Source: Amphiscolops sp. MND2022 (taxonomy: Eukaryota). From it: a stretch of DNA of 64,000 nt. This document shows, one piece after another, positions 1 through 48,610 of the stretch. The notes beneath the pieces are model-generated. The model ran no database searches. It was not told the DNA's origin and was given only the letters and a program-made list of their open reading frames with translations. Position numbers and translations under genes: made by a program. The first letter of the stretch is position 1. Each line of letters begins with the position of its first letter. The stretch is from positions 51,708,001 to 51,772,000 of the forward strand of contig OZ076414.1 in the NCBI GenBank assembly GCA_964187785.1. The letters are read 5' to 3'.

Positions 1-364
1 TCATGAGGTCTTTCACTGACAAACAGTCGAACCGAAAAGGGGATTGGACTCCGTGTTGCTGATATTTGCAAACGTCCAACAGGCTGACTGTGTCGGGACC
101 ACACCAGAGGCAAGCAACAATGTCAGGCCTGGTAGATATGGCGCCGACAAGAGAGGAGATCAGGCCCAGTTCAGCAAACGTCTTTCCCTGTGTCAGACCA
201 GTTCGTTTGAGGTACACTCGGACCAGTTGTCCACTGTGCCAGAAGCGGATGTAGAGGTGGTGGAACGCGCCCTCACTTTGGAATTCCAGCGTATAATATC
301 CTGTTGCAACTACTTGATTGCCAATGTCGTCAATTGTTTGGAGAAAGAGATGATGAAACAGCAC
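1..364 (-). CDS. Next exon of the BED/hAT-like gene, open to the window edge
   Basis: 106-nt intron 365-470 (GTAAGT...ttttctttaatAG). The exon reads VLFHHLFLQTIDDIGNQVVATGYYTLEFQSEGAFHHLYIRFWHSGQLVRVYL... with no stop to position 1, resembling the first beta-strands of the hAT catalytic domain. Confidence 0.65.
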   Translation of the reverse strand, partial: MLFHHLFLQTIDDIGNQVVATGYYTLEFQSEGAFHHLYIRFWHSGQLVRVYLKRTGLTQGKTFAELGLISSLVGAISTRPDIVACLWCGPDTVSLLDVCKYQQHGVQSPFRFDCLSVKDLM

Positions 365-470
365 CTATTAAAGAAAACATAGTCATTGGTGGTTTTTGCT
401 CTAAAAGATGGAGTGAACGAACAAACTCAAAAGGGACTTAATGTCGTCTGAGCTAGAGTAGTATACTTAC

Positions 471-2750
471 AGAAAGGCGTTCTTTGCCCCAGTTGAAATC
501 CTTAAACAACGCCTGGTGGTTCACGACAACGCCTATGTCTTTCCACAATCCACGCAGAGCACGGATGTCACCGAAGGTTGGAAGGTAGTGGCCAAGAATT
601 GAAATCTGCACTCTTGCCCTGTTGTCTGAGGAAGATGCCATATGTTGTGCTCCGGCCATAAATTCGTGGTAAAACGGCAACTTTTCACCAATATCCACGA
701 GTTCAGCATCGACGAAATGTTTGAGTTCTTGTTCTAACTGGTACGGCGTAAGAACCTTGCCGTCCCTGCGACGGACCTGGTGTTGAACAGCCTTGGTGTG
801 CGGATCAATGGTTGATAGATGTTCGTATCTCCACCTTTGATCCTTTCTTAGATGTTTGTCTGTGGAATAGTGGCGAAGAATTTCACGCGCTGCTTTGCCA
901 TAAATTGACACGTTGCCCTTGCAGATCTGACAGTAGAACTTGTATTTGTTCCACTTAGGGTCAACGGGTCCAGATGCGAAGGTCCTTGTCCAGGTCATCC
1001 CCTGAAAGTATTCTTCCTTCATTATCTTGCAAGACCTCGTGACTCGTCTGCGTGGGGTACAAGGCTTGCGGGGAATTTTGGGCTTCCGCCCCATGGACTG
1101 TTGGTCCCTTAATGCTTCCTCTTTCAAGGAGGCCAACGTTTGTGCCCCAGGGCTGGCAACCTGTAGGTGTGGCTCAGATGACGATGGGTCCATGTGGCTA
1201 ATATCATACCTCTGTGGAGGCTGGGAAATGGCAATTAAGGAAGGAGGGGTTCGTTCATACCGGTATCCAATACTGTTGGAGTCATTATCACTCCTTAGTG
1301 CTCCACTAGTTGAACTCCCTGCCCTATCAGTTTCTCGATCAGAGAAACCATCAACTTCTGAGGAAGGAGTGACTCTTCTACCAAATGGATTTGCAGGGCC
1401 ATATCTGTTGGTGATATCACTGCTTAGATTCAACCTCCTTGCCCGTTCTATAATGTCTTCCATCATGGAGTAAGACGCCCGGGCACTCTCATCTGCAACC
1501 ACCCTAAGGATTGACTGAACCTGATCAGCATTTAGAACCAGGGTAGCATGACCTCGGGGCAATTCTACTGTAGCCGCCTCTTGAAAGTAGTGGTTAATAA
1601 TAGCCCTACTGGTATTACACAGTCGGTGTACCCCTGAATCCTTAACGTTCTGCCCAAAAGTTGTTTCCTCAGCTTCGGACCCAGAAGAAATGTCAAATGA
1701 GTCACATGGTACTCCTGGTGGAGGGAATAGTGCTTCGGCGAGAGTTGATCTAGCGGCACCAAATGATGTTACATCAGATTGGACTGACGTGTCGTTTCCA
1801 CTAATATGGCCCTCGAGACACTCAGTCTCTGCATTGGACGCACTACTCTCAGTAGCGAAGACTTCATCCTCTTCATTGACCAGATCATGACGAGCCTCCA
1901 CAGGTACATCAGGCGCGGTGAGTGATCTTCCAGGTTCAACAATGATCTTGGGTTTGTTGGGGGAAACTCTGCCTAGACGAAGGCGTGGGTCAATGACGTA
2001 ATTGTGATCAGAGTCCAAGTATGCAACAGTTGGAGGGGCAACAGTAACAAAACTCTCGAAAGTCGGTCTGTTCAGACCAGCATTAAGTGGAAGCGCTTCA
2101 GTACTACTCTCTTTCGCCCCTAGGATGGTGACTTCTTGGACGGGCAAACTATATTCTTCCCCTCCAAGTTCCTCCATTCGTCTGGTAAAATAGGTCTGGC
2201 AACTCTCTTGGGAACTACCTGATTCGGGCAAAGCATCGGCCCCACTAGCCTCATTAGTCTGGCCGGATGTAGGGTCCACAGGGTTGCCAACGACTATTTC
2301 GTCGATTTCCATCAATTGGAGTTTAGTATCAGTCTCCATCGCAGTTTGACTTTCCACAACTTCTTCGCGCTGTACATCTACAATAGGGACTGCCGCGGAA
2401 GTGGATATCACTGGTTCAGGCTCATTCGACCCCACGTCAATCACCAAATTTCCTTGGAGGACATCCTCAATCTCAGGCGATTGTAACTCTGGCAATTCTT
2501 CTTCCAGCTCAGTGGACGTTGGGGGCACTTGCTCATTTTGCTGAGCAGCATCAGGACCATGAAGATCCTGGTTGTCAGCGTTTCCACCAGAGGACGGTTG
2601 GTCGTTATGCTCTTTATCTAAATGAAAAGAGATAAATTTACGCGGTTCACTTCCTGCAAACAAATCCATCTTGCCGCTATTTTGAAAATCTTCCGGAAGT
2701 AAGTTTGAACAAAGTTTCTTCATGAAATTTTTCACGATGGAGGAAGTACT
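471..2750 (-). CDS. Large exon of a spliced BED-type zinc-finger / hAT-transposase-like gene (acidic low-complexity N-terminal region, then Zn finger)
   Basis: 760-aa ORF 453-2735 contains FYCQICKGNVSIYGKAAREILRHYSTDKH (C-x2-C...H-x5-H, the hAT/BED finger pattern). Phase-0 GTAAGT donor at 470 after ...GKERLS. An in-frame TAG acceptor at 2752-2751 gives an exon start at 2750. Confidence 0.7.
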
Positions 2751-3826
2751 CTAGCTTAACCTGAACCCTGATCAAGTTCAGTCTAAGCAATCATTTAAAA
2801 GAACCAACCTGACGTTACTTCCATGACGGGAGAATGGAAATCTCAGTCTTCTAGAGGGTGATTTTGACCTGTAGTCCTTCCACGATACCACTGCTGGTGG
2901 ATGAAGGCTGTTGGGAGAGTCTGGTGGAGAATTGAATGTACCTGACGATTCGTTAGTTGAGGTTGATTCAGATGCTGGGTAAGGTGACTTTGAGGAAAGA
3001 TTCACGAGAACAATAAACAACTCAATTAAAGAGATTCAAGAAATTTGTGAAATTGATGAGTGTAGGATATGAACCTAAAGTTCTGACTAGACTGCTGACA
3101 GACACAAATATGATATTATGTATTCTTGGTTAACTCACTTTACACTTGTGATACAAACGATTACTTCCCTACTCTACATGATATACTTTACTTTACGACC
3201 GAAGATTAGTCTGATAAAAGGACGTCGTGGCTAACTATATCTTTCATTATTAGCTGATCAGAGTACCATAGATACAACCAGGCAATCACTGCTTTTCATG
3301 TTTGGAACCTGCCAGTGACATTCATGAAATTTACTTTATTTCAATTCATTTCATTTCATCATACTCACTCTATTATTTGGCCATATTTCATTTTGCCAAT
3401 CATTCAATTATCACCATAATTATTCATGGCTTATTATTGGTTACTTCAGCGGTGACGCTCAGCGGACCACCGGTCTTTGATGATCTCAATGTTTACTTGT
3501 TGTTATGAATGAATAACACTTTCATTCATCATTACATCTTAATGAAGTGTTAAACAAATAAACTGAGGGCTACTTGAAAGCGAATTGACTAAAGGGGACT
3601 TCCATTCAGGGAAGGAGCTAGAATAAGACTTTCTTAAAGTGGAAAAGTTTATGATGAATTAAGGAAAATGCGCGAAAACTTTCCCCCTCCTGATATTTTC
3701 CCGCGACCCTGAGGATTTGGGGTCGACCAGACGAGAACAATTCATTCGATCAAACCTTGTTAGAGCGATACAGTTGTTTCATATCTTCTCGAGATTGCTA
3801 AGAAAATACTCTTACAAAGTTTCAAT

Positions 3827-4645
3827 ATGGAAATGAATTTGCAGTTCAACTTAGAGGCACTAACTACACCGGCGATAAGTCCTAGTTATTTTTCCTCGGA
3901 TGAGGATATGGACGTTGATATAGAATCAGTTGACGCAACCGGTGAACCGTCAGGTGATAGTGACATCGAGGTCATTGCTTGCTACCGACATGTCCCGGTC
4001 CCCGAACAAGGATCAGTAGCGGGACGACAGATGACAACTGAACTGTCTGATTGTACGGACAGCGAGTTCCCACCTTTTCCTTGGGACGACTTCGAAGACA
4101 TGCTGAGGATGACTGAGGATCAAGTGGACCCGCTAGACAGAGGAGCTGGTCCTAGTGGCGCCGCTCAGACGGGAAGCCCCCCGATTAAACATTGTGGAAG
4201 TCTCACACCCTTAGTAGATACTCCTCTCTCGCCCCCACCACACGAACGCGGTCCGACTTATGGTCCGTGTGGCGATAACTTGCCCCCGCTGCTTGATCAA
4301 CTACTACCACTGAGTTCACATATACAAGGGATCAGCGTAAGAATGGCCTCCCATTGTGGGCAGCCTAATACAGCAACATATGGAGATTGCATAGTGTGTG
4401 GACGAAGCTACGAGCAGATAAAAGAAACTGCAGTTTTAGATTATCTTGAGAATACTACTAATCTGCACGAAACTTATGGCGAACGATTGAAAAGAAGAGC
4501 AGCCTACTTAGCAGGAATGGACCAAGGCACTGTACTTTTCGTCCCTAGGGGAATGTCGCAGGCGGCCGCCTGCGACGGCAACTATTATCAAATACTAGTG
4601 GACGGAGATAACACCAGCCCACCGCCAGGTGTTTTGCCAATTTAG
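3827..4645 (+). CDS. Retrotransposon extra ORF ('ORF3'), 272 aa, acidic/Pro-rich N-terminus plus CxxC domain; function unknown
   Basis: Homologous to 45009-45533: PLVDTPLSPP/PMVDTPMSPP, DCIVCGRSYEQI/DCLICGKSVEQI, RRAAYLAGM/RRMAFLEGM, SQAAACDGN/SQASACDGN. The last ~30 codons lie inside the LTR. Confidence 0.8.
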   Translation: MEMNLQFNLEALTTPAISPSYFSSDEDMDVDIESVDATGEPSGDSDIEVIACYRHVPVPEQGSVAGRQMTTELSDCTDSEFPPFPWDDFEDMLRMTEDQVDPLDRGAGPSGAAQTGSPPIKHCGSLTPLVDTPLSPPPHERGPTYGPCGDNLPPLLDQLLPLSSHIQGISVRMASHCGQPNTATYGDCIVCGRSYEQIKETAVLDYLENTTNLHETYGERLKRRAAYLAGMDQGTVLFVPRGMSQAAACDGNYYQILVDGDNTSPPPGVLPI

Positions 4646-6144
4646 AACATATTAGACTTATGGTCTATTTAGCCACACCCAAAACTAATGTTAGTACGGA
4701 AAACTTGGTTGATATTATGTTTTAGTTGATTAATATTTCATTTTGTGCCTGATTGGAATTTTTGCTAATTGTTTTGTAATTTGCAGTGTAAAATTGATAA
4801 CAGCTGTAAAAATGCAATTAATTTGCTAGCAATCGGTACAAGGAAACGTGTTCAAATACTTATTTGGTCTCGCTCAGCGTACACTCGGTCCAAATAGTAT
4901 TAACCAATCACAGTGCTTCCTTTGTGCTATACTTGTGCTTATTATACTGCCGCCGCATAGACTTTCAGTCCAAAGCGGAATTAATCACGTGACCTATCCA
5001 TGTACTGCAATTTGAGCGCTGGTGATGAAGCCAAATAGACTTGTAGTACAATTTATTAGAATGTTACTATTATCCATTCATGTAGTGTTGCTGTTTAGTT
5101 AGAAGCATGTAAATAGTATATTTAAAGTTAGAGAATTTTCACAATACCAATATTAGTAAACTGTTTGTCTGATTCAATCTCGCTTATCCGCTTCCCTTTG
5201 ATGCTATTTTTATCATATAATCATGATGAAATGATGACGTAATGTCTCTAGACTTGCCCTAAAACCCTATAAAGTGCTATTTTTAGAAGCATGACACGCA
5301 TAATTTTGCGTGTCACCCTGACCAAACTATAAATAGCAGGGACACTGAGGTGCAAGGACAATTCTTTTGATGAACGAGATACAATTCAGTTGATACTACA
5401 TTTCTTAGACGCGATATTGAGAATTACTCAGTTGACGTTCAGTTGATTGGAATAATTCTGTTTGTGACAATATACAATTGACCTTAAAATCACGCAACCT
5501 TTTCAATGCCTTCAACAAGAAAGCAAAAGGCTAAAGAGAGACACTCTAGACAGTTAGACATCATGTCTGATGTTAAAATGTAGATGTCATGTTAGGAAGT
5601 TATTCTGGTAATATTGAAGGAAATGACCACAGTGAGAATGAATTGAATTTGGATTCAGAGTCCGGTAGGCTACAAAGAAACTCTAATGTAACCGGAGAAG
5701 ACTTTAGATCACTACTCACAAACAGTAGAGAAAACAGTGAAATTACCATAGAAACAACTAGATTGATCAATGATGAAATTTCTAGTCAATTGAGCAGGAA
5801 GCTTAATGAGATTAAAACAAGCCTGAATTCTCAGATACAAAACGCAATTTCAGCTGCAATTACTAATACAGTGCTTCCTTCTATTCAAAATACCCTCGAT
5901 ATGCAGGGGGAGCCCAATTTTACCATTGTGGACCAAAGGTCCAATGAGCTACATCAAGGTTTGAAAGCAGCCAGCTCAGCCAGCAAGGACTTAAGGTCTA
6001 GTGAGCGACAACGGAACCCCGGAGCTGAAATAACACAGGAAACCTGGGGTAAACGTTCTAAAACGTCCCCAGTAGAAGGAAATCATAGACACATGTCTAG
6101 AGATAGTTCAGTAGATTCGTATAATAGTGAACAAAATAACGACA
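4554..6144 (+). mobile_element. 3' LTR (~1.59 kb) of a Ty3/gypsy element whose 5' part is outside the window or deleted
   Basis: PPT AGGGGAA directly before TGTCGCAGG at 4554; ends ...AACGACA at 6144. Contains a frameshifted gag 5' region (ATG 5506, MPSTRKQKAK...; ORF 5589-6152). Confidence 0.8.
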
Positions 6145-6429
6145 GTTACTGAATATAACAAAAAATTAGAGGACTATCTGGTCCTAAAAGAGCCTTTTCT
6201 CGCTCTTTTAAAAGTGTATCAGTGCCGAAAAAACTAAAGGATATACCTTTACACTTGTTTCGTAGGTGCTGTAAAAATGAGGAAAACCTGAATGGATGAT
6301 TCTTTAGCCTCTGTTCGAACACTTTTGTTCTTAAGCTAGTTCACATCGGCCGTCCTATCTGTTGTGTCGCATTCGTATATGTAGAAAGTTCTAATAGTCT
6401 GACGATTTTATTTACCTAAATGCACCGAC

Positions 6430-18600: not shown

Positions 18601-21600
18601 ATATTTGTAACATCAAAATTACGGTCCTTGGCTAGCATCTTGAGTTGCTAAATGGTTATTTCTGAGAAACTCCTGTACACAAACTCGCACGGCTCGTATT
18701 TCTCAGAAAAGGGGTGAATATATACGAAAAAGTACAAGATTCGATGTATTTTGCCTTTTTTGCCTTTTATTAAACTTTTTGCCCCTAACCCGTATTTCTG
18801 CCCTTTTTGCCCCTATTGCCCTTTTGCCCTTTTTGGTTGCCCTAGTGATAAATAAGACGTTGCGATGCATCAGACGATGCATCAGACGTTACGATGTCCA
18901 ATATGATCAATGCATCAGAACATCATCGCACTTGGTTTAAATTAAAGAAAAACGTGATGATAGTTTAGAAAAAAGAAACAACTAACTCATGAGATGTTTG
19001 ATGTGAACATATCGAACCAAAAAAGGAAGTAATAACGGAGTGGGGATGCAGACAGCCCAGTTGAGGGTCTGGGTTTTGTATCCATTGATAGGCGGGTCAG
19101 TTGAGTCCAGAACTATCACCTAAGGTCAAAAACTTTACTAAAACTAATCTGCTCTTTTCAAGTTTTATAAGTTAAGAGTTGAATTTCACCATGTAAGTCG
19201 CTTAGTTGGTTGGGTGAAAGGATGTGGCATATGAAACAGCAGTTGTCGACGGATTTTTTGTTCATTTTCATTGAATTATGTAATCGTCATTTATACATTT
19301 CCTTAACGCTCTTCATAAGAATCTTGTCAAGATTCTTACCGAAGATTCAACCAAAATACAAGATTCCTATTATTAAGAATTTCAAGAAGTTTCTCATTGG
19401 GATTACACCATACTCCCCTGTAACCACTCAACGATGCTATCTTTTGAGCACGTCGTTTCAACAATATTTGTATCCGAATGACGTGACTTGTGACAACTAT
19501 AATGATTTCACTTTTATTCAGCTTCAAAAAGTATATTCATCTCCATGAAATGAAATCTCTTTTGGACTATTGTAAGAAAATGGGATTAAACAAAACATGG
19601 TTTGAAGTCTTTTAAAACGTAAAACTCCTACAAATTTGAGGAATTGGTGCAATCTCTGCCAACACGCAATATAATTGACGAACTATTAGGCCGACAAATT
19701 AGATTTTTTAATGACTGTTGATCCTTTTCGAAAAAAATGCCTCCGAACAAACACTTCTCGACCAATCAGAGAATTCCTCCGATCTGAACTCATGAGACTT
19801 TCATGCAATTCCACTCATGGAACCACATGATCATCACAATTCCATGGATTACATGCATAGAATCATATGATTTCATGCATGGATACGTACAGAATAACAT
19901 AATACTTCGAATGGAATCATATGAACTCAGCGCAATCTTGGATAACAGTTATGATAACGAACGTAGTCCAAAGCTACACCAATTGACAAAAATTTTCTCG
20001 TTTTTGTCGGGTTATTTTCCAAAACAAAGTTCATGTAAAATCTATTTAGAATAGTGAGACTCAATTTAAAGGTCTTATCGTGTATATAATTAGAGTGGGT
20101 CTTTTGTTGTCCAATGAACACCGAAGCTGTTTTCAAACGTCAACTGACTCATAGAAAGAATAGATATTTTGGTCAGTTCACTAAAATCACACTTCTATAG
20201 GTAGTATTTATTTAAGGAGTGAGGAATTCGTGCAATCTTTGCCAACACGCAATTGATCCGACGAACAATTAGGCCGAGAAATTTGATTTTTTAATGATTG
20301 TTGATCTTTTTTGAAAAAGGGGCCTCTGAACAAACACTTCTCGACCAATCAGAGAATTCCTCGAATCTGAACTCATGAGACTTTCATGCAATTTGACTCA
20401 TGGAACCACATGATCATCATCACAATTCCATGAATTACCTACATAGAATCATATGATTTCATGCATGGATACGTACAGATTAACATAATACTTCGAATGG
20501 AATCACATGAACTCAGCGCAATCTTGGATAACAGTTATGATAACGAACGTAGTCCAAAGCTACACCAATTGACAAAAATTTTCTCGTTTTCGTCGGGTTA
20601 TTTCCCAAAACAAAGTACATGTAAAATCTATTTAGAATAGTGAGACTCAATTTAAAAGTCTTATCGTGTATATAATTAGAGTGGGACTTTTGTTGTCCAA
20701 TGAATACCGAAGCTGTTTTCAAACGTCAACTGACTCATAGAAAGAATAGATTTTTTGGTCAGTTCACTAAACTCACACTTCTATAGGTAGTATTTATTTA
20801 AGGAGTGAGGAATTGGTGCAATTTCTGCCAACACGCAATTGATCCGACGAACTATTAGGCCGACGAATTAGATTTTTTAATGACTGTTGATCCTTTTCGA
20901 AAAAAATGCCTCCGAACAAACACTTCTCGACCAATCAGAGAATTCCTCCGATCTGAACTCATGAGACTTTCATGCAATTCCACTCATGGAACCACATGAT
21001 CATCACAATTCCATGGATTACATGCATAGAATCATATGATTTCATGCATGGATACGTACAGAATAACATAATACTTCGAATGGAATCATATGAACTCAGC
21101 GCAATCTTGGATAACAGTTATGATAACGAACGTAGTCCAAAGCTACACCAATTGACAAAAATTTTCTCGTTTTTGTCGGGTTATTTTCCAAAACAAAGTT
21201 CATGTAAAATCTATTTAGAATAGTGAGACTCAATTTAAAGGTCTTATCGTGTATATAATTAGAGTGGGTCTTTTGTTGTCCAATGAACACCGAAGCTGTT
21301 TTCAAACGTCAACTGACTCATAGAAAGAATAGATTTTTTGGTCAGTTCACTAAACTCACACTTCTATAGGTAGTATTTATTTAAGGAGTGAGGAATTGGT
21401 GCAATTTCTGCCAACACGCAATTGATCCGACGAACAATTAGGCCGAGAAATTTGATTTTTTAATGATTGTTGATCTTTTTTGAAAAAGGGGCCTCTGAAC
21501 AAACACTTCTCGACCAATCAGAGAATTCCTCGAATCTGAACTCATGAGACTTTCATGCAATTTGACTCATGGAACCACATGATCATCATCACAATTCCAT

Positions 21601-24243
21601 GAATTACCTACATAGAATCATATGATTTCATGCATGGATACGTACAGATTAACATAATACTTCGAATGGAATCACATGAACTCAGCGCAATCTTGGATAA
21701 CAGTTATGATAACGAACGTAGTCCAAAGCTACACCAATTGACAAAAATTTTCTCGTTTTCGTCGGGTTATTTCCCAAAACAAAGTACATGTAAAATCTAT
21801 TTAGAATAGTGAGACTCAATTTAAAAGTCTTATCGTGTATATAATTAGAGTGGGACTTTTGTTGTCCAATGAATACCGAAGCTGTTTTCAAACGTCAACT
21901 GACTCATAGAAAGAATAGATTTTTTGGTCAGTTCACTAAACTCACACTTCTATAGGTAGTATTTATTTAAGGAGTGAGGAATTGGTGCAATTTCTGCCAA
22001 CACGCAATTGATCCGACGAACTATTAGGCCGACGAATTAGATTTTTTAATGACTGTTGATCCTTTTCGAAAAAAATGCCTCCGAACAAACACTTCTCGAC
22101 CAATCAGAGAATTCCTCCGATCTGAACTCATGAGACTTTCATGCAATTCCACTCATGGAACCACATGATCATCACAATTCCATGGATTACATGCATAGAA
22201 TCATATGATTTCATGCATGGATACGTACAGAATAACATAATACTTCGAATGGAATCATATGAACTCAGCGCAATCTTGGATAACAGTTATGATAACGAAC
22301 GTAGTCCAAAGCTACACCAATTGACAAAAAATTTTCTCGTTTTTGTCGGGTTATTTTCCAAAACAAAGTACATGTAAAATCTATTTAGAATAGTGAGACT
22401 CAATTTAAAGGCCTTATCGTGTATATAATTAGAGTGGGTCTTTTGTTGTCCAATGAACACCGAAGCTGTTTTCAAACGTCAACTGACTCATAGAAAGAAT
22501 AGATTTTTTGGTCAGTTCACTAAACTCACACTTCTATAGGTAGTATTTATTTAAGGAGTGAGGAATTGGTGCAATCTCTGCCAACACGCAATATTGATCC
22601 TACGAACTTTTAGGCCGATAAAATTGATTTTTTAATGGTTGTTGATCTTTTTTGAAAAAGAGGCCTCCGAACAAACACTTCTCGACCAATCTGAGAATTC
22701 CTCAGATCTGAACTCTTGAGACTTTCATGCAATTCCACTCATGGAACCACATGATCATCACAATTCCATGGATTACATGCATAGAATCATATGATTTCAT
22801 GCATGGATACGTACAGAATAACATAATACTTCGTATGGAATCATATGAACTCAGTGCAATCTTGGAAAACAGTTATGATAACGAACGTAGTCCAAAGCTA
22901 CACCAATTGACAAAAATTTTTCTCGTTTTTGTCGGGTTATTTTCCAAAACAAAGTACATGTAAAATCTATTTAGAATAGTGAGACTCAATTTAAAAGTCT
23001 TATCGTGTATATAATTAGAGTGGGTCTTTTGTTGTCCAATGAATACCGAAGCTGTTTTCAAACGTCAACTGACTCATAGAAAGAATAGATATTTTGGTCA
23101 GTTCACTAAAATCACACTTCTATAGGTAGTATTTATTTAAGGAGTGAGGAATTGGTGCTGGAGGAGTGAGTAATCCACAAGCATGGAACATTTTCATGAT
23201 ACTCACCTATCAATCCTAAGCATATTATTTGGAAGTTACATTCATCGGAACAACGCGCGAGGAGTGTTAATTCCTTACAGTATAGGGGACATTACCGTTT
23301 TAGGATGAATTTCACACACTAACACCTCTTATCCAATGAACAGAACAGTTTGAGAAGAATTGAGTTCGACGTTTAGGGTAAATTTGTAAGTAAGCTCTTG
23401 TTGTTTGGTTTTACACTGTTAAGTTGATTCTTGGAAAACGGATGATGGAAAACGCTGTCAAAAAATTCAATACAATGAAAACTTTCTATTGTCTGTTTCT
23501 GTGTCTGAGAAAAAGTTTTTTTTCAAAAATTTAACGTTAATTTCAGCAAAAAGTTCCACTTTTTTGCCGTGTATTGCGAGTTAAAACTGTCTAAAAATCG
23601 CTGCGCATTTTCTCAATCACGAACACTTATCCAAATTTGACACTAATGTACATACAAACAAGCTGGGAACGGCATAACTCAGCGCCATACCTAAGGCTCA
23701 AAAATAGCAAAAAGACTTTGTAGTGTCAAGTATTCTTTTCTAGAGTACCCGAAAAACCCAAAAGTTGGACCGAAATGACGTGTTAACAGGGGATCCTTTG
23801 GGCTTTTCCAGGATCCATTTCGTTGCAATATATCAAAAAAATGCAAGGGGACCCTCTGAAGACACAATGCCGAAAAAACTGAAAGTGGGACCTTGTAGTC
23901 TCGCCCGGTAATCTATGTTACGCTGAAAAAAAGGAACAACTTTTTTTAGTTGAGTTCCCTGGGTGAAATGGTTCAATTTGACACCTTAAAGTTTCGTAGA
24001 ACTTTCAAGAACTACTTTGGTCAGTTCGTGTGGATTAAAAAAGAGTCACTGGTATAGTCGCGTTTCACTTCATGAAGCGCCGACTAAAAAATAATTTTCG
24101 AAAAATTCATTCCTTACGGCAATGTTGCTGGCTCCGTACAATGAGACACTGATGAAGAAGAAACTCAAGTTGACCGGGAGAAGTGCTCTGAATGACTCAT
24201 CCTTCGTGACGTAATTGTAGGAATTCCGGATATAGGTTGCCAT
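6430..24243 (-). CDS. UNC-93-like / MFSD11-like MFS membrane transporter gene, multi-exon; 3' end probably decayed
   Basis: Phase-compatible GT-AG exons: 24243-24118 (MATY...NLSFFFISVSLYGASNIA), 23273-23207, 18072-18036 (tentative), 17343-17282 (tentative, weak donor), 12937-12802 (VGYTLQSVMLIYPLRPVVYAFSAIGG), 10744-10607 (KNSGLWYFFQMASLLLSNTIVYIAF), 9918-9727, 8872-8723 (FLGMECGFWMGV), 7917-7838 (GVMGFCVGIGEI), 7033-6871. Motifs are collinear with MFSD11 as I recall it (GRNSGIFW, TGLELTFFSGV, FIGIGEI). Confidence 0.8.
8945..10438. mobile_element. Two small putative DNA-transposon remnants with CATTCC...GGAATG ends (8945-9464, 10050-10438)
   Basis: Short terminal inverted hexamers. Internal motifs tttcttagtctgag/ctgggcca of the first copy recur at ~12650-12750. 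No TSD found. Confidence 0.35.
12120..12480. repeat. Dispersed repeat, copy 1 (copy 2 at ~14866-15210; inverted terminal piece at ~11170-11188)
   Basis: Both copies start cgcccgcta/tagcatc/ccgggatattttccgcc and share tandem AGATCTTATTCCC-like motifs. Confidence 0.7.
13047..14520 (+). mobile_element. Ty3/gypsy solo LTR (1474 bp) in an intron of the MFSD11-like gene
   Basis: TGTCAC...TATCACA flanked by a perfect 5-bp TSD CATGG (13042-13046, 14521-14525). Internal gag-like ORF (ATG 13953, MGLNKRNRRSR*, continuing 14016-14520). Confidence 0.9.
14866..15210. repeat. Dispersed repeat, copy 2
   Basis: Collinear similarity to 12120-12480. Confidence 0.7.
16270..16510. repeat. Minisatellite, about 8 copies of a ~31-bp unit
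   Basis: Unit consensus GGGCCATACTTGAAAACATGGTTTCCATAAAA is directly visible. Confidence 0.9.
18420..18844. mobile_element. hAT-superfamily MITE
   Basis: TIR TAGGGCAACC...GGTTGCCCTA; perfect 8-bp TSD GTGATAAA on both sides; subterminal TTTGCCC repeats. Confidence 0.92.
19638..23158. repeat. Tandem array of six ~585-bp units with an A/B dimeric higher-order structure
   Basis: Unit starts at 19638, 20221, 20807, 21390, 21976, 22560 and a 13-bp partial at 23146. Identical spurious ORFs recur at a 1169-bp period. Confidence 0.97.
23790..24090. repeat. Dispersed repeat (second copy at ~35325-35640)
   Basis: Shared blocks atatcaaaaaaatg..ggg..ccct, caatgccgaaaaaa, tagtct.gcccggta, agttccctgg, gcgccgactaaaa. 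Confidence 0.75.
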
Positions 24244-25815: not shown

Positions 25816-28800
25816 TGTAACGGCAAGCTATTATTGGTCGCTTAACGCGTTAACAGAGGTGGGGGAACCTGCAGGAATGGGTGAATCGCTCGGGACAGGC
25901 GCCCATCGCCACTGATCCATTTTGCCTCCAGGGGTGAAATACGTCCCGGGGCCGAGGGTGCTTCGACGAATACTGTCCAACCGGTCCTAGTCTTTGATTG
26001 CTAATAGTAACGGGCATATTTCTGACTCTCTAAAGACCACCGCTTAACTAGCATATAAAAACAATGCCAAGAATAAGGTAAATTTCCAGTTCCAGGGTGA
26101 CATGTGAATAAGATCTAAAATTGGGGAATAAGATCTAAACTAGCGCTAACGCTACTGAATACAGCCAAAATTACTGAAAATACATGAAAACAGGCATGAA
26201 TATGGCGAACCACAGAGCTACAAGCTGGGGCGCAGGGGCTCCAAGCACCAAACAAGGATCTTTAGGCGAAAAGACTCATTTTTACGGTTTCCGCTACAAA
26301 GGGTAGCATAATGCTGAAAAGCGATAAAACCGGTGTTAGCACCTCAAAAAGAGTCTATTTTCGGATGTTCTTGCCGTCTCTGGCTTCTCTCATGGCGGCG
26401 CGCCCGTGTTTTTGCTCGTTCTTGCTCTTTGTTGTCGAAGTACCTGCCAATTTCGTGGAAACAGCGAAAAGAGCAATCACATACTCAGTGCCACGTCACA
26501 CATCGGATTAGAATTTTTGACAAAATTTCTGAACATGTCAAAGTTGCAAAATCGGTTGATATTGCTGTACCAGATCTTGCCGTTACATCACTCCCCGGGC
26601 TTTATGCATGACGTCCCTGTCATGCGGAGAGGCTGGCATTGAATACATCGCCAGATCATGAGTGCAATCCACGGGGGTCTCAAACTGGTGATGTTGCAAC
26701 GGTCCAGTGGCACTGTCATCTTTTGCTGATTGGGCAACCATGAGGTCTTGCTTCTTGCCATCCAGAGAACCTGCATCGTCCAGAAACTGTTGAAACAGAG
26801 CTAGCTCGAGAGCTAGAAATTCAGTACTCATAAATGCACCTTGAAATTGATCAAATCCAAGATTCCATACATCAATAAAAAAACACCACTTTTTTAGCAC
26901 GAGTTTTCTGCAAAAGTCTGAATAGGATACTGCTAGCACTTTGGTTTTTGGACGTCTAAAACTTTTTTTACGGAGCGCTCACGCTCCAAAGCGCTCGTGG
27001 TTTTCACCAAAAACATCTTTTCCACGGCAATAAAACTTCAGTTTGCTGCACAGTTAAAAGTTCTTTTCGCTAAAACTTCTTTTCAGTGGAAAAACCACTG
27101 TTTAAAAGGAAAACAAGCTGTTTCGTAGATACTTTTTTTACAGTTCGGCTTGGTTTGGGCAACACGCACTGATGTGCAGCTCCATACCTGTATAGAGTTC
27201 AGTAGCATCTGTCAAGGAGCGCATCAGAAGCAAACTACGAACTGCTCGTAAGAGTAAGCACTGGAGTAAAGCAGACAAAGGTAGATCAAATCTTGCCATT
27301 TGCAGATCAGGAGCGCGCGCGCTCCTTATTTTCCCGGATATCTTGTTGGAATCTGGAGGAAACTTCTGGAAATCTTGGAAAAAAAAACAAAAATAGCACC
27401 TTTCGGGCGTAGCAATACATGTAGAGTTTGTGGGTTATTTATTGCACTGGGGCTCCCCGGGCTTTAATCCTTGAGCACCTTCAATAATATAAAGATAGCA
27501 ATGACTAACAAAAAATGCGAGAGAATGGATTGGGCGTTGAAGACACCCCTCCCCCCTTGAAAAGAAGTGGAGTGGGATTTGGACTGGGTAGACATCACCA
27601 TCCAATAGCAGCAGGACATGCAACAAGCATGAAGCATCAGGAAATCCGATAAAGAAAATTCCGGAGACTGGGTCTATCTCAAGATTGGAATAGTTGTTCG
27701 GAGGACGGCCACACCTATGTCCCTTCGGTCGAAGCGACCATGGTAGAACTTGGCGTGGTGGACGGCCATCATAATGGGACAACAGAACTTTTTGCCATGA
27801 GTGCTCAACGTCTGTGCGCGGTGGTCGACCACGTCTATGACCAGTTGGTCAAGTTTTAGCGAAGCCACCAGGCAACCAATTGATAAAGACTGGCGGGTCC
27901 ACCTGAATAAAATCCCGTAGCCCACCTTTAGCAGAATGTGATTCAAAGGAGTCTTTCAGCAAACTCGGTAGCAACTTCGTAGTTGATATTAGGGATTTTG
28001 TTCCAGTGAAGTGAGAGTTGCTTAAAGAATCCTGCGATAAGGAAATGGAGGATGAGATAGATATTCGCTCATTCTTCGTATCACTTGAGTAGAAGTTGCG
28101 CTCGCGCAACCCATTATCATCGGCGTGATGTTCAGGCAAAGTGTCAGCAATACCCATGGTTGTAGTGTCCAAAGATATTGGGTCCACCACCATGTCTTTT
28201 GTTGGCGGTGTCAATGGTTCTGATTTGACGTCGTTTGAAACATTGATATCGGCATTTCTGAGGTGTGCCTGCACTTCTGCATTTATCGACTGCATTTGTG
28301 CTAGCGCTCGCGCTAGCAGTTTCTCCCTCCGAAACTTCAGATCCTCTAGCTTCGTCGATCGGTCATGTTCACCTACCATATGGGAACCATTTTCCACCTT
28401 CATGACTGGTTCATCGTCAGGCTGGGCTACACTGGTGCCCTTCCCCCCTTGAAAAAGGAACGGAAGGCCTTCCAACGTTTCATTTCAGCTTTAGATGTAT
28501 TCCAGAGTGCGTCGCAGGCACTCAACACTGCTGACTTGAACTGTTCAGGATCAAATTTCGAAGTCCTAGAGGAGTCCATAAATTATGACCCCTGCCGGCA
28601 ATTTTTTTTTGAACCGTGGCATTCGCCTCGTTTGCACCCAAGAAGGTCTACTGGGCCCCTTCCGTTGAAAAATGAAGGCTTTTTGGGTCTGCCTCTTGTA
28701 CAGCGGAAGTATTGACGATTTACAGTGACAGATTTTCTGGTGTTCTTTGGAATTTTGTACAAAACGTGTGTCTGAACAGAATCAAATTCAGTTCTATGAA

Positions 28801-31800
28801 TCGTACTGGGTGGAAAATCACACAGCTTATTTTGTCAGTCACACAAGGTTGAAAAATAACCTACCGCAGCTCATAATTGCCTCCAGCTTCAAGCTAGAGC
28901 CTTTTTCAACGATTTTTGGACTCTTCGACTTTTTTCAAAACTTACTCAAGTGGCTTGTACAAGCGCTGGAAACGTGGTATCGGGCTCAAAAGTGGTCACG
29001 GGATCACACGTACAACCCGCTACACTACAGAAACAATCAGTGAGAGTTCAGACCACTGCGCAAGATTTAGATCCGGTACTGACGTTCCGCATCACCGTGT
29101 CTCGATTGACACGATTTTTCACCTGCAATCAAAGACTCTCGTCCACAGTGCTGAGCTCTCACTTTTTTCAGCAATGGTGCACCAACTGACACTAGTAAGA
29201 ATAGTCCAGGGCAATGTAATCCCAACTTCCCAATAAGGTGCGCCGACAATTCCAAAAAAATGATCCAATTCGTTACAATACACAGGATATCACAACTTCA
29301 AGTAATAAAATGCTATGATCCAGCAAGGCAGCCCACTCGATACTGATCAAATATTACACGCACAGCCATGAACGAACTACTGGGAGTTCAAACTAGGAGT
29401 TTTCACAGTTTTCCAACACGTAGAAATGACTTTTTTCTCACTTTCCCAGTTTTCGTCTCGGTGAGACCTCTAACTGACACAATGAATATGCACGTCCGAG
29501 AAGCGTCGAAATAAGTTCCAAGGGTCGCAGTGTGCTGAAACGTATACAACATTTCAGGATTGATGTACTGACCTAAAAAATGAGTCCAGAATTGGGGTAT
29601 TAGGATCCAGTCACAGGTCAGAGGTTTTCCAGATATTTTTTGGGTTTTTCAGCTTCACTTGAAAAAAACTCCAGAGGCTAGCGCTAACGCTAGAAACGCA
29701 GGATCGACTTCAAAATCAACCACACAAACCCACGTAAATTGAGGTACACGGCAATAATAGCTGATTTGCGCTGAGATGACCAGGTGAAGTTTCAACACAG
29801 TACAGACGTTCGGTATCACTGTGTTCCAAGATGTACTGTTTTTCACGTGTCAACCCAGATTCTGGCGAACTGCAAAGAGCGCTCACGCTCGTTTTTCGGC
29901 AACAATACGATAAACTTGCACTGGTTACGATAGTGGGCAGCAATTTGGCCCGATCTGTGGCAGCAATTTGGCAGCAATTTGGCCACTCTTTGAATAAGGT
30001 GTTCAGGCAATCCCACAAGACTTCGTAGAATTCGCCTTCTTGCGCAACTTCTTGTGCAGTTTGTTTTGTCAATTTTTCAACAGATGCAGTACCAATTGAC
30101 CCCAAACTTGACAGGCGCTGCCAGTGGGCACCAACCACGCTGTTAGAATAGTAAAACAGACGCTGGTAGGCTTGCAGGGGGTCTCCTCAAAGATTTGGCC
30201 CTCTGCTTGTCTCGGTGAGGACTTAAGAAAATTGATGTTTTTTCAACGTCCAAGATTTTTCAAAACACGTTCTAAGGCTCGTAGGCTGTTTAAATTTGCA
30301 CAGCGTTTTCCCACAAGCACATTGGGCTAGAGAATCAATCTGGTTTAGGGCAAAAAGTCTGCAGTCACCCACAGGAAGTATTTCAAAGAATTTTTGGATT
30401 TTCCACAAATCGCACCACAACACTCAAGAGTCTCGTGTTTGCGCTGGAAGCGCCGTATCGAGCCCAAAATTGACCAGCAGATCTTATTTACACGTAGGTT
30501 TACGAAAGTGAACACAGTTTTGAGCTGCGCCCCTTCTACACAGTTTCACCTAGGTATAGACGTGCGGTACAACTATGTACCGAAATACACTGTTTTTCAC
30601 GTCTTTTTCAAGATTGCGGTCCACTGGAAAAAGCGGTCCACTCAAAACCTCTGCAACAACGTAAGAACTAGCACAGGTTACAATGGTGGGCTGCAATATA
30701 GCCCCACCCGTCGTCTAAGGTGCCCGGGTTACTTGGAAAAATTAAGAAAAAACTGCCTTTTTGCGCACCTTTTTGGGTTCCACGTTTTTCCTATTTTCTC
30801 GACAAGTATCACACAGATCGGCACCAAACTTGGTAGTCTATGCCAGTGGGCACTTAAAATGCCACTAATTTGGTCGAATTGAAGCGCGAGCGCTTATTTA
30901 AGTTTTCGACCCGATATGGACGTCACACACGAAAAACACTGTTTTTGACTACTTTTTTCACAAATTGACCAGGAGGATCACCTCTGAAAGCGATACGGCG
31001 AGCAAAATGGGACCAACGTGTTGCCCCACTATCCATAGCACTGGGATAAACCCTCAATTGGTTGTGACCGTTAGGTATAAGGCACTGACAGTCCTGCAGT
31101 TTTGGATTTTTTCGGCTTTTTTCGCTTCTCCGAAGTCGAAACGTCAGAGAGTTTTTCTCAATTTTGGCGTGCGATACGCTCACCAAAGTTTCGGCACTTG
31201 CGCTTATTTTGGTGGTGGTTACGAAAGTGTAACCACTTTTTGGCTAGGGTTCAGGAATCGATGACCCGACCCTAGCTCAGAGACAGTCCGGTTTTGTGCA
31301 AAAATGATCAAATTCAGTGCGTTTTTCCACTTTTCTCAGCACTGAATGGGAGTTTTTACACGCGGTTTTCGTCACCACGCGTTATTTTTAATACAAAAAC
31401 AGAAATTGAGAGCGCGCGGGATCCCAGGTCTCGAAAACACTGAGTGCGCCAGAGGTTTAATGATGTACTCTGGCACTCCTGAAACTGGCCAAAAATCAGG
31501 GTTTTTCGACCTGTTCTCACCATGAAAACGTTACAAACTCTCTTAAATCCTATTTTTGGCACTGTGGAGTGTGTCCCAAACTAACAGCAGCACGGAAGAG
31601 GCAATTACATCACAATCCAGCACTCTCCCAGTGGCATTTCATAGTGATTTTTTTGCCAATTTCGCCAAAAAACGGATTTTTTCATGAAAATGTGTCTCAA
31701 AAAGGACTCCAACGGCCTTTCTGGTTGTCGTTACACTATGTAGCCTAACCCTCAAGGTTTTGGGCTGCGTTCTATTCCTTTTTGCAACTACTGTGGCTAA

Positions 31801-33391
31801 TACTTCGAGCGCTCGCGCTCGTACCAAGAAAAAAACTCAAAAATGCCAAAAGTCACGTTTTTGCGACTTTTGCACCAAAAATCGCACTTTTTTCACTGAA
31901 AACAGTTGCAAAAGCACACACTGAGTTGCAACAAGGAGAAACAAGCCTTGCCAAATGAATCCCCGTCAAAAAAGTGTATTTTCAAAGTTTTCGCCAACCA
32001 TGAGACATTTGAGCGACATTTCTGGTCACAGGGGGTACATATTCACCACGCTTTTTCTCCACATCTAGACCAGATAGAGACACGCGTTTCGGACCATTAG
32101 CTTTGTCTGCTATTGCACTTGCTGTCGACCAAAAACCATACCTCTAGGACGGCTCCACGAGAAAAGGGAGTAGGATGTAGGCAACACACGATTTGACCCC
32201 TCTGCCGCCCCGCTGGCTCGTGGCTAACCATCCACCAGTCACCTTCTTGCATGGCATCAAATGGCTGAAAATAGCTCAAAAAAACCGTTAAACACCCGTA
32301 GCCACGTGCTACGGTCCTCTACACCTGCAAAAAAGATACCCGCTGATGGGAACCTTGCAATTTTAGACGATATCTGTCAACAAGTATCTGTTATCTAAAT
32401 ATACCAAAGGTACTCGGAAAAATCCCCTGAAAGACTAGAAAAACACCAAAATACAACGTCATAACATCTAAAAAAGTTGGAAAAACTCTGGATAAACGTC
32501 TCCTTCCAGAGTTTTATAGTTCTTGGCGTCCAATACCAGGGGGTCAGAAATTTCAAAACCATATAATAGGGCAGTAATCGGAAGCGATCCCTCTGTGGTC
32601 GCCAAAAAATGAGGTCTTATGTAACGGCAAGTTATTATCGGTAATTTAACGCGTTAACAGAGGTGGAGGAACCTGCAGGAAAGGGTGAATCGCTCGGGAC
32701 AGGCGCCCATCGCCACTGATCCATTTTGCCTCCAGGGGTGAAATACGTCCCGGGGCCGCGGGTGCTTCGACGAATACTGTCCAACCGGTCCTAGTCTTTG
32801 ATTGCTAATAGTAACGGGCATCTTTCTGACTCTCTAAAGACCACCGCTTAACTAGCATATAAAAACAATGCCAAGAATAAGGTAAATTTCAAGTTCCAGG
32901 GTGACATGTGAATAAGATCTAAAATTGGGGAATAAGATCTAAACTAGCGCTAACGCTACTGAATACAGCCAAAATCACTGAAAATACATGAAAACAGGCA
33001 TGAATATCGCGAACCACAGAGCTACAAGCTGGGGCGCAGGGGCTCCAAGCACCAAACAAGGATATTTAGGCGAAAAGACTCATTTTTACGGTTTCCGCTA
33101 CATAGGGTAGCATAATGCTGAAAATCGATAAAACCGGTGTTAGCACCTCAAAAAGAGTCTATTTTATGATGTTCTTGCCGTCTCTGGCTTCTCTCATGGC
33201 GGCGCGCCCGTGTTTTGGCTCGTTCTTGCTCTTTGTTGTCGAAGTACCTGCCAATTTCGTGGAAACAGCGAAAAGAGCAATCACATGCTCTGTGCCACGT
33301 CACTTATCGGATTAGAAATTTTGACAATTTTTCCGAACATGTCAAAGTTGCAAAATCGGTTGATATTGCTGTACCAGAGCTTGCCGTTACA
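25816..33391 (-). mobile_element. Non-autonomous (LARD-like) LTR element: two ~772-bp LTRs and a 6-kb internal region without recognisable gag/pol
   Basis: LTRs 25816-26587 and 32620-33391 differ at a few percent of sites and have perfect 12-bp TIRs TGTAACGGCAAG/CTTGCCGTTACA. PPT GGGGAGTGA abuts the 3' LTR (26588-26596). PBS-like TGGCGACCACAGAGGGAT at 32604-32587. Confidence 0.85.
27849..28590 (-). pseudogene. Frameshifted ORF of unknown function inside the LARD-like element
   Basis: MDSSRTSKFDPEQFKSAVLSACDALWNTSKAEMKRWKAFRSFF joins, via a frameshift in a purine run at ~28445, the 208-aa ORF containing a helical segment (LEDLKFRREKLLARALAQMQSINAEVQAHL). Confidence 0.45.
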
Positions 33392-42400: not shown

Positions 42401-45008
42401 ACTCGCTTGACGCTGAGAAGGAAAAACTGACGGCTGTACTGAGAATAATGATTGATTTAATCAATTAACTTTAATGTCGATTGTTTATCATAACAACAAC
42501 GTCAATAGGTTGATAATTTTGTTACGAACATTATCAATCGTAATAAACATGCGCTAGACGTAACCAAGAAGTCTCGTATCAAATTCAACGAAAATAACAG
42601 ATCACATTCATGTCTAGCTATAGTCAACATTTTATATAAAAAATGGCAACAGTTAACATTTGTATTGGGTTCAACAGCATTTAAAAAGTTATATCAATTT
42701 CAGCGGAACATGGCAGGCTCTTTTGTGGGGAAACTGATTATATATTCCTTTGTACTACAACGGACGACATATGGCGGGCTACGCCAATTATACATTGAGA
42801 TTGAACAGCATCATTTTTAAAATCGAAGCAACACTTTTATAAAACACTCACAGTATAGGACAGTTTATACCCCGATGGTATTCAACAGTGATTGAAAATC
42901 GTACGTGCAGTTGTATCACATAAACATGCTAATACACGGTGACGTTCAGTTTGAAATCTGTTCCTCTAAATCTAAAACACTTATCCTCTAAATCAAGCCT
43001 GCGAAATTGGTCTTAAAACATAATTCCGAGAGGTTTCATTCTTAGTCGGAGGAGAACCAACGTAAAGTATGATACCCAACATTTCAAAAACAATTGAAAA
43101 TGAATTGACGTGAATTTAAACCGGTTCTGACTGGTACTTCTTTTCTAAAACTAGTAAAATCATAAAATTTAATAAAATTCAATGAAAGCGCCTAGTTCTT
43201 TAAATTTGTAACGTAGTGTTGACATATATTTGAAGCCAAGCTTGGCTAACTGTCGCTGTTGACTGATTTCCAGCTAGCTGCCAAGTTTACAACGTATTGT
43301 TGACGTAAAAGTGGAAAACTAGCCTTACCTCGACCGTGATAAGTCGTTAAAAGTTTTTTCTCTGAACTCGTTTACGCGGTTGTGACGTCACGTATATAGT
43401 TATTTCAACCGGCGTTGCTGTAATTGTTTAACGTCCTAAATTGCACCAATTGTTTTTCAGAGTTGCGATCCAGCTGCCCTCTCTCAGAATGGCGTATTGC
43501 TTTAAGGCTTTTTTCTTTCGTGTTATTCCACTTTTAGATTTAGCTATGATCAATTCCAAAATGTAAAATCCATTTAAGTGAAATAATTGTGAGAACTCTG
43601 ACCTAGGGTCTCTCTTAGATCTCCTACAGATCGTGAATCCTTCTTTGCAATTTTTATTTTAGGCCCAGATACGCTTTCCCTGTTATCCTGGCTATTCGGG
43701 GACGAACTGGCCTCAGTGTCCCTGTGCCCAGCAGAGGACATGGAACTAGCAATGTTTTGGATTTCTGGAATGACTCTTTCATTTATAGCTGTTGTGACGG
43801 CTTTATTTATTTGATTATGCATCATTGACATCATAGAATCCATTTCTTGAGACAATCTGAGATTAAACTCATTCGAGAAGGTTTCAAAGGAGTGTCTGAT
43901 TTCATTTTGTCTCAGTACATCATTTTCATGCTGATAATCTCTATATTCATTCTCTAGGTACGTGTGTGTATCAGCGTCCCCATGGACCGATGACTGATCT
44001 ATAGCTTCAGCTAATTCTCTTTCTATGGGATTATTATTGTTATTTCCCAACATCACATCTAAGTTTTCAAAGTCGGACATCATGTCCATTTCCCTAGATT
44101 TCCTAGCTTTCGCTTTCTGGCGTCTAGTAGAAGGCATAAGAGATTATTGCAAGAGGTAAGAATTTAAATTAAGTTCTCAGGCTTGCAAATTCAGTGTGAG
44201 ATTACTCAGTATCAAGTAACAAGCATGTAGTAAGGTCAAACTTCTTGTGTCCCGGGACTAAATGTCTCCGCTATATATATATATAACAAACTACATGACA
44301 CGCATAATATTGATCATCATATTCTAATAATAGCCTTAAGGGCTTCTAAAAATAGCAACAGCTCTAAATATAGTAACGGTTAACTAGTGACATCATCATA
44401 CATCAAAAGGCCTTTCCCGACAGTTATTGTGGCGGGAAGACTGAAGGTCCATGCGGACAAGCAACGACATACATGTATGAACGCAATAAACTACATGTAT
44501 TTCAACATTTTCTAATTGCATGAAATATATCAAAGGCATTGATGGCGTACTATTAAGCACAGATTACATGTCCTCTAAGGACTAATAATTCACTAAATAA
44601 GATAATAAAGCACCGGTTATTATGCAATTCATAACACTTTCCAGCAAGCGCTTTTGATTTGGTAAACGGCCTCAGCGTCCAATCGACATGAGTGGACCGA
44701 GATATTATTGACTGGCGGCATGTGGCCGTTCAGTCCCTTTAATCTAGCAGCATAATACAGCGCCGAATAAAGAAAGTACTGCACTGTGATTGGTTAGCGA
44801 GTTAATTGGACTGGTGGACCAAGGCGACAGGCGAGAAAACATTTGAACGCGTTTCCTCTACCTGTACGCCTTGGTGTCCAATTTACTAGCAATGTACAAA
44901 TTAGCGCCGGTATTACGTAATACTAAATCATCATTACATGATATTTTATATTCAAAATAACTAAATTACATGACTTTTGAGATACAAATGCAGTTCATTT
45001 AAAAAGTT

Positions 45009-45585
45009 TCAATTTAAATGGATCGTGTTGGGTAAAGCTTTTTGATAGTTGTGGCAAATAGAGTACAAGTTGCCATCACAGGCGGACGCCTGGGACACTC
45101 CCCCTGGGATTAGCATGAAACAGCCCACCTTCATTCCTTCTAAGAACGCCATCCTCCTGGCATTGAATTGTTCTGGGGACTCCCCTCGGACAGCCGTCTT
45201 GTGCATGTAGTCAATCACTGCTTCATCTTGAATCTGTTCCACAGATTTTCCGCAGATGAGGCAGTCTGTGCAGCCCGTGATGTAGGGATTGTCGTCGCTA
45301 GGGCCTTTAAAGTGTATTCCACTTGGGCATTGTTGTTTATTACTAGTAGAGGGTTCTACTATTGCCCTCCAGTCTCCTGTAGGGTATTTATCCACAGCAG
45401 GGGGCGACATTGGTGTGTCCACCATTGGAATTAATTGGCTGCAAATATTAATCGGATGATCATTTTTGAGCCTTGGGTCCCTTGCGACTGGCCCTCTCCC
45501 CATCCCTAGATCAAAGTATCCAGCATCGAACATTGGTCCTGGGATGTATGAGAGCCTGGGGGTCCCGGGACGATCTTCTCCCTGT
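45009..45585 (-). CDS. 5'-truncated ORF3 homolog ending inside the 3' LTR
   Basis: See alignment to 3827-4645. Crosses the PPT (AGGGGGAG, 45105-45098) as PGGV and stops at 45009, inside the LTR. Confidence 0.8.
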
Positions 45586-48500: not shown

Positions 48501-48610
48501 GGATTATTATTGTTATTTCCCAACATCACATCTAAGTTTTCAAAGTCGGACATCATGTCCATTTCCCTAGATTTCCTAGCTTTCGCTTTCTGGCGTCTAG
48601 TAGAAGGCAT
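45506..48610 (-). CDS. Gag-protease fusion ORF (1034 aa), truncated by an internal deletion
   Basis: Capsid-like region (FDGKSEKFELFEDLF...), two CCHC knuckles (CSYCKATGHFYKSC, CDTCGKKNHSTEKC), aspartic protease motif LIDIGA. The reading frame changes character at ~45585. Confidence 0.92.
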   Translation of the reverse strand: MPSTRRQKAKARKSREMDMMSDFENLDVMLGNNNNNPIERELAEAIDQSSVHGDADTHTYLENEYRDYQHENDVLRQNEIRHSFETFSNEFNLRLSQEMDSMMSMMHNQINKAVTTAINERVIPEIQNIASSMSSAGHRDTEASSSPNSQDNRESVSGPKIKIAKKDSRSVGDLRETLGQSSHMVTGVGNEPTHPKILRQHSNHNVSLDATLPAPDPEVPEPQQDPFNRLADVLVNLQNKPQTMTIRPVQTTPMTFDGKSEKFELFEDLFHTMIKMQPAMTEQMKINHFHSLLRKGALQTFRNINSINRQTLEDVLVIFRRKYVKPESQATAKHKWHRLTFDPSTMKLPDFLEELNQGAEKAFGENAKSMIDSLSYAKLPPKLKRSVKMARLENGTYEEIVAHLERELELNALEESDDLPMATMASASTNQSNLLSTGINTNKDAQCSYCKATGHFYKSCPKLKKKKEMEEKDGKKPQRPTYQPCDTCGKKNHSTEKCWQGAGAHLRPKRLQAEQKDPNASTSESKPKTPGDTTTTSSSQSNIKKDRFKKLILPRLQIHDYMSVRQYVISDPPIITFRHYIKDTTGTPSVVWQQQMEKACIKTYKQVHNDRPDRFYETDYTKDFETQFRPLPLVEDYHPQYIDAEYGKDPYWDDELYDKRNLQFRNEDYPPTDDEDDPQIEDTKLSRALIELWQPNSEAISGEIGETPEQEDHQDPNSLLDETAFLHILVEQQGEPSYVPLSTNLGLKIERRMLYFPMDFGELTLDGLIDIGAHSSAIPEADLRKIRLLAPQSIVKEGPAPSFQIMVANGDLETPKSTVELKFEVGDIEFHEIFIVMEKLSSPIIGLMFLQRNHTVLDMRQGILNFPFFSMQLKTADHKYSNVMEPILNPEDVTIPPNDRTIISIQSRIYAENAVTGILQPSEHLNEENDITFCAAIITLDEGTTRIHINNFTDQPYKLKKGMHIANFSVMTPEQMKHVRPIDPVSTWHLLNENQEDAVQYISSLLKANREKIVPGPPGSHTSQDQCSMLDTLI
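48044..48060 (-). promoter_or_regulatory. Primer-binding site, tRNA-Leu type
   Basis: TGGTGACAGGAGTGGGA immediately after the LTR-terminal CA; one mismatch to the canonical tRNA-Leu(CAG) PBS TGGTGTCAGGAGTGGGA as I recall it. Confidence 0.85.

Follow-up and report, generated by a model that had tools for sequence, protein, structure and literature searches.

The window analysed here, a 64,000-nt stretch of the Amphiscolops sp. MND2022 genome (G000:C6:51708001-51772000), opens inside a large minus-strand gene carried by a Ty3/Gypsy long terminal repeat (LTR) retrotransposon. This antisense gene is an integral, conserved accessory gene of a large Gypsy lineage that is still active. Its position between pol and ORF3/3' LTR, its conserved exon-intron structure, the selection acting on it, its exchange as a cassette and the absence of aspartate (Asp) at two aligned catalytic positions can be taken as practically certain. 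Our overall reading, to which we assign a probability of about 0.5, is that this fixed, selected and intron-split gene likely derives from a hAT transposase and encodes a predicted nuclear DNA-binding regulator that would aid expression of the element.

Occurrence within Gypsy elements

Searches of the genome returned 617 candidates by DNA and 7,229 and 4,223 by protein, and the 145 and 150 protein-search candidates that were scored mostly had open frames. Sixty copies were fetched from the match lists to span families, their flanks being unknown beforehand. Gypsy pol lay adjacent and antisense to the gene in 10/10 close copies and in 20/20, 9/10 and 20/20 of the others (59/60 in total), with the same position and orientation down to ~30% identity; the exception, C6_60.1, is a degraded copy amid tandem repeats. 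The first-pass annotation had proposed that gene and retrotransposon occur together, and had set this against a gene with terminal inverted repeats (TIRs) of its own or a single-copy locus. We find many copies, and in this element the gene has no inverted-repeat pair on its flanks such as hAT TIRs would form. A single-copy host gene is rejected. Two LTRs were in range in 33 of the 40 copies with long flanks, 15 pairs being 99% or more identical, and a script detected 5-bp duplications in at least 21 of the 33.

The carrier is a Ty3/Gypsy element because in L013, a close copy with intact pol, Pfam gives the order protease, reverse transcriptase (RT), RNase H, integrase. A 5' LTR matching 4554-6144 and a GTTAC duplication had been predicted upstream, and both are present in the 30 kb of upstream flank searched for the 5' end: the partner LTR lies at G000:C6:51683711-51685299 and is 98.2% identical over 1,592 bp. 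Both LTRs are ~1.59 kb long with TGT...ACA ends, and TGGTGACAG stands directly 3' of the 5' LTR, at the candidate primer-binding-site position. Neither LTR nor TIR separates the antisense gene from the head-to-head ORF3 in this element, as first described. Features of the window are given in Table 1.

Table 1. Features of the antisense gene and its carrier element in the window
Feature	Position	Strand	Remarks
Exon with predicted RNase H-like core	1..364	-	Runs on 122 nt beyond window start
YTLEFQSE strand	272..295	-	Supposed first catalytic Asp position never D
Intron, 106 nt, GT-AG, phase 0	365..470	-	Conserved sites; junction contiguous in P0090, P0107, P0178, P0300
Long coding exon: ~500 aa rich in S/E/A/P, then zinc finger and linker	471..2617	-	
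BED-like zinc finger, W..F...CxxC-x16-H-x5-H	852..992	-	Best-conserved part of protein; CxxC...H core at 932-852
Predicted intron, 191 nt	2618..2808	-	Conserved cis motifs; alternative in-frame ATG at 2669
Mini-exon predicted to open the coding sequence (M-E-V-T-S; phase-1 donor)	2809..2824	-	In frame with long exon
Tentative 5' untranslated region intron or paired cis motifs (CTGGCAG ... AGCCACG)	3231..3308	-	
ORF3	3827..4645	+	Ends within 3' LTR; detected in 38/40 copies
Short purine run at polypurine-tract position before 3' LTR	4547..4553	+	Read from sequence
3' LTR	4554..6144	+	TGT...ACA; 98.2% identical to 5' LTR
Target-site duplication GTTAC	6145..6149	+	Identical 5-mer precedes 5' LTR

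Exon-intron structure of the antisense gene

The minus-strand gene had been described with a 106-nt intron at 470-365, and this holds: the intron reads GTAAGT...TAATAG and its removal leaves one open frame. Its donor is kept in 9/9 and its acceptor in 8/9 close copies. Three further introns (L001:9878-9810, 9674-9608 and 9525-9458) and three more exons lie beyond the window start, with the stop at L001:8314, and GT or AG occupies 70 of 72 splice dinucleotides in the nine close copies; by conservation the gene has at least five introns. Between subfamilies, intron cores are 52-54% identical against 76-77% for exons, and the three codon positions of the exon at 364 are ~83, 91 and 52% identical. 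A chance open reading frame is rejected as an explanation. Four database proteins (P0090, P0107, P0178 and P0300) span the 471/364 junction without an intron and end in the next intron, and P0300 splits at that junction when placed on genomic copies; they represent either relatives that lack the intron or transcripts spliced only in part. An apparently intron-less genomic copy, C8_59.3, proved to carry an internal deletion. Unbroken relatives of the gene would encode ~1,340 aa.

The coding start had been placed in the open frame from 2750, and here the annotation needs revision: the start is most likely the ATG at 2824 of a 16-nt mini-exon whose donor at 2808 is joined to 2617. The CAG/GT donor at 2808 is kept in 12/12 aligned families, a YAG acceptor at 2618 is found in 30/31 copies and the ATG mini-exon (2824-2809) in 23/31; C6_26.9 has one too. 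Because donor, acceptor and in-frame mini-exon are conserved, the ATG at 2669 falls within a probable intron. That predicted intron holds the conserved motifs CTTGATCA, ACTTCCT, CTTCCGGAAG and AAGATGG, with 81 GGAAG-type cores observed against 5.3 expected in 23 copies; these motifs may be ETS and YY1 promoter sites. A sixth intron at 3308-3231 is tentative: the CTGGCAG/AGCCACG motif pair occurs in 24/31 copies, and only 18 of those 24 have a GT following the first motif.

Selection and cassette exchange

The antisense gene is under strong purifying selection. Between subfamilies nonsynonymous divergence (dN) is ~0.10 and synonymous divergence (dS) 1.4-3.6, giving dN/dS of 0.028-0.087 with two comparisons saturated; against the nearest copy dN/dS is 0.13-0.17. 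As the copies are dispersed and mobile, this selection would act most simply on element lineages.

The gene is also exchanged between elements. Among 33 copies there are 35 pairs in which RT is 90-98% identical yet the accessory exons are only 58-77% identical, and in these pairs the accessory gene, unlike RT and integrase, is almost saturated with synonymous differences. Between the window copy and C3_36.3, pol, ORF3 and LTR are 91-97% identical and the gene 62-82%; the gene was therefore transferred as a cassette and the LTR was not. In other pairs, gene and ORF3 were swapped jointly with the first kilobase of LTR sequence. The comparisons C13_37.1/C3_43.3 and C6_52.7/C8_13.6, in which gag-pol is mostly 94-99% identical and the gene, ORF3 and first 1 kb of LTR mostly 56-74%, represent recombination of whole 3' modules. 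Resolution in the RT tree is poor, and the last-exon tree, built quickly, omits 7/40 copies; because the trees are weak, cassette exchange rests on the pairwise identities.

Origin of the protein

Besides a zinc finger and a predicted RNase H-like core, the protein has an acidic N-terminal region and a basic tail, KKRGR. The finger had been called BED-type. The finger pattern itself stands, CxxC-x15-18-H-x5-H being found in 48/54 genomic rows, and ESM leads point to zf-BED clusters at 0.82-0.83. In Pfam, zf-BED gives no match, and the sole Pfam match, zf-C2H2_ZN292, is below the cut-off. The first two catalytic Asp positions of the core were aligned by eye, and the third catalytic residue could not be placed. 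Asp is found in 0/59 rows at the first (E 29, Q 12, V 10, A 5, I 2, L 1) and in 0/61 at the second, so that the absence of the first Asp at YTLEFQSE, proposed from the window alone, is borne out.

A nested hAT transposon that is active or recently inserted, or passive cargo, would fit an intron-containing gene with a BED-like finger, since such genes are typical of DNA transposons. We give this possibility next to no weight: absent TIRs, a position and orientation shared by 59/60 copies down to ~30% identity, strong purifying selection and the absence of Asp at two catalytic positions largely refute it.

The probable ancestor of the gene is a hAT-type transposase whose catalytic residues were later lost. 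In fold comparisons of the predicted core, Hermes was the best or tied match and gave the longest alignments among the top-ranked matches, including the helix before strand 1. Descent from hAT is only likely because its support consists of fold-level and language-model leads, with profile searches giving no hAT or BED signal, a result that the first-pass annotation had said would speak against its proposal. Several further results weigh against this descent, beside the missing zf-BED match. Inspection of alignment A5 revealed no CxxH motif after the second Asp, Pfam hAT models did not match the gene, the hAT C-terminal dimerisation domain PF05699 matched 0/20 last-exon members, and hhalign against Tip100- and Ac-type hAT sets only stayed at noise level where the positive control reached 99.35%. 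A different origin, from a C2H2-type finger plus RNase H-like protein of the host or another mobile element, for example a nuclease-like protein or an antagonist of RNA silencing, gains from the fact that every sequence-profile test for hAT is negative and from E27, invariant in 59/59 genomic rows, with E29 in 29/59. The E-F-E-T-x-G strand may also resemble the first motif of DEDD exonucleases. No Pfam exonuclease model matches the gene, however, E29 gives way freely to Q, V, A, I and L, position 27 is V in the divergent P0300, and the long Hermes alignments with the helix before strand 1 also argue against a non-hAT origin, which we consider unlikely even though DEDDy exonuclease ORF3s are described in rotifer LTR elements in the accessible text of PMC5408684.

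Wider searches added little. No Foldseek match to the RNase H-like exon reached E<=0.001. The last-exon model matched nothing clearly in the PDB and viral sets of Foldseek or in the VIA wide and second-look searches, whose lists contained no transposase, though one may exist; ESM Atlas gave no informative match for the last exon, and a homologue search with it among proteins of 668-2000 aa gave none. A metagenome scan found no relative, and own-genome searches with PF14291 and PF25431 were uninformative, the controls likewise giving no match. HMMER against 1.84 billion representatives returned 459 matches, and the 16 examined among the 150 listed are fragments of the antisense-gene family; a search with P0300 found no close sister lineage, 20/20 sampled matches lying inside Gypsy. 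Of the original proposal that a retrotransposon captured a dead DNA transposase, the antisense Gypsy accessory gene lacking Asp thus stands, and hAT descent is likely but unproven. In its working the gene would resemble a domesticated transposase, yet it does not belong among the hAT transposons.

Proposed function

An internal promoter near 2600-3300, host splicing and survival of the introns through packaging of the opposite-strand RNA together form a very probable expression scheme. The host would transcribe the antisense gene from this promoter and splice the transcript, and the packaged RNA would be the other strand; from what is established for LTR replication, the introns would persist for that reason, being copied intact. 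A protein lacking the DDE centre could not, for want of it, cut DNA. The conserved finger, acidic N-terminal region and basic tail would suit a nuclear DNA-binding activator or anti-silencing factor, and it is an evenly balanced possibility that finger and dead core bind DNA while the acidic region activates or de-silences in the manner of TnpA and VANC. Tentatively, a DNA-transposon transposase may have been domesticated, introns included, by a retrotransposon lineage and turned into a swappable trans-acting activator or de-silencer of its own family.

With the same origin, the protein might instead guide or aid integration, as a tether between the integration complex and selected sites on chromatin or DNA. 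The conserved finger is of a DNA-binding type, and nuclear-import or targeting roles have been proposed for plant antisense ORFs in the accessible text of PMC7264820. But the target-site 5-mers vary, with no single sequence, and the gene is swapped, and differs, between elements with near-identical integrases; such steering of integration is improbable.

State of the window copy and neighbouring repeats

The window copy is defective: a 13,969-bp insert splits its integrase and its last antisense exon is frameshifted. The insert lacks long ORFs (G000:C6 ~51690292-51704260, L002:2292 to L001:6260) and has at its borders a 657-bp stretch of pol in direct duplication (99.7% identity); insert and duplication are either a rearrangement or an assembly feature. 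The gag frame starts within the LTR (window 5577-6152), so the 3' LTR holds the first part of gag. A weak dUTPase-like match between protease and RT (L013:2012-6535, E 0.012) is below the cut-off. ORF3 has no Pfam match and is kept across families (28-50% in divergent copies) as an acidic, proline-rich protein with CxxC near its C-terminus.

In another close copy, near 5.78 Mb of G000:C5 (L020, L031), ORF3 is interrupted by a second LTR element, nested there and with LTRs of 533 bp, which may be of the Pao/BEL kind. Elsewhere in the window, 19637-23050 is a tandem array whose units alternate between 583 and 586 bp, and long direct-repeat pairs at 43588-49044 (100%, 4.47 kb spacing) and 25816-32919 (97%, 6.8 kb spacing) are probably LTRs of other young elements.

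Comparison with known systems

The hAT transposases (Hermes, Ac, Tip100) and domesticated proteins derived from them, such as ZBED and DAYSLEEPER, appear, from modelling, to share with the antisense protein a BED-like finger ahead of an RNase H-like core, and a long helical region as well. The antisense gene differs from this group in lacking TIRs, Asp at either of the first two catalytic positions, CxxH and profile-level similarity, in its long acidic N-terminal region and in being kept by a retrotransposon rather than at a host locus. The deltaretrovirus gene HBZ is likewise antisense and spliced, lies in an LTR retroelement and presumably has a regulatory role. It is a small bZIP-type gene driven from the LTR, whereas the gene described here is large with a predicted internal promoter.

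Antisense genes are mentioned in the accessible text of PMC11963269, which, with that of PMC7264820, describes plant Ty3/Gypsy elements whose stretch from pol to the 3' LTR holds antisense ORFs, frequently with TRP28, for which regulatory roles are proposed. These aORF-3R genes (Retand TRP28/PF04195, maize Grande gene23) share place, orientation, lineage-wide conservation and a proposed nuclear DNA-binding accessory role with our gene. By Pfam, however, it has no TRP28 (PF04195) match; the word intron is absent from the accessible text of both papers, and our gene has at least five; and its protein is much longer, with a BED-like finger and predicted RNase H-like core, and lies head-to-head with a sense ORF3. 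Spm TnpA and VANDAL VANC are likewise accessory, non-catalytic, element-encoded proteins, and the accessible text of preprint 10.64898/2026.08.24.746577 treats transposases as intrinsic regulators and derives TnpA from a transposase. They serve plant DNA transposons of their own class, however, whereas regulatory activity here is predicted; that text nowhere uses the word retrotransposon. Bdelloid rotifer LTR elements, which are Gypsy-like and animal, capture modular accessory genes, namely enzyme ORF3s (GDSL esterase, DEDDy exonuclease), but downstream of pol and with intact catalytic residues, and the accessible text of PMC5408684 contains neither transposase nor intron. The accessible text of a review of giant transposons (PMC6431247) contains neither hAT nor antisense. 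In the literature covered, with repeat databases, most subscription journals and supplements outside its scope, we found no Gypsy element with a spliced antisense transposase-derived gene.

Transposase domestication is usually ascribed to hosts. If our reading is true, the keeper is another mobile element, one class having been domesticated by another under selection on elements rather than on the host, and the keeper families are dozens, diverged and many of them recently active. Antisense placement is a way for an RNA-replicated element to retain a multi-intron gene, and it raises the puzzle of a protein from a separate transcript that is under strong selection in the element encoding it. 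The natural cassette swaps allow accessory type, expression and insertion sites to be compared. Set beside these systems, the antisense gene is a real, conserved and unusual accessory gene that extends the antisense-ORF kind.
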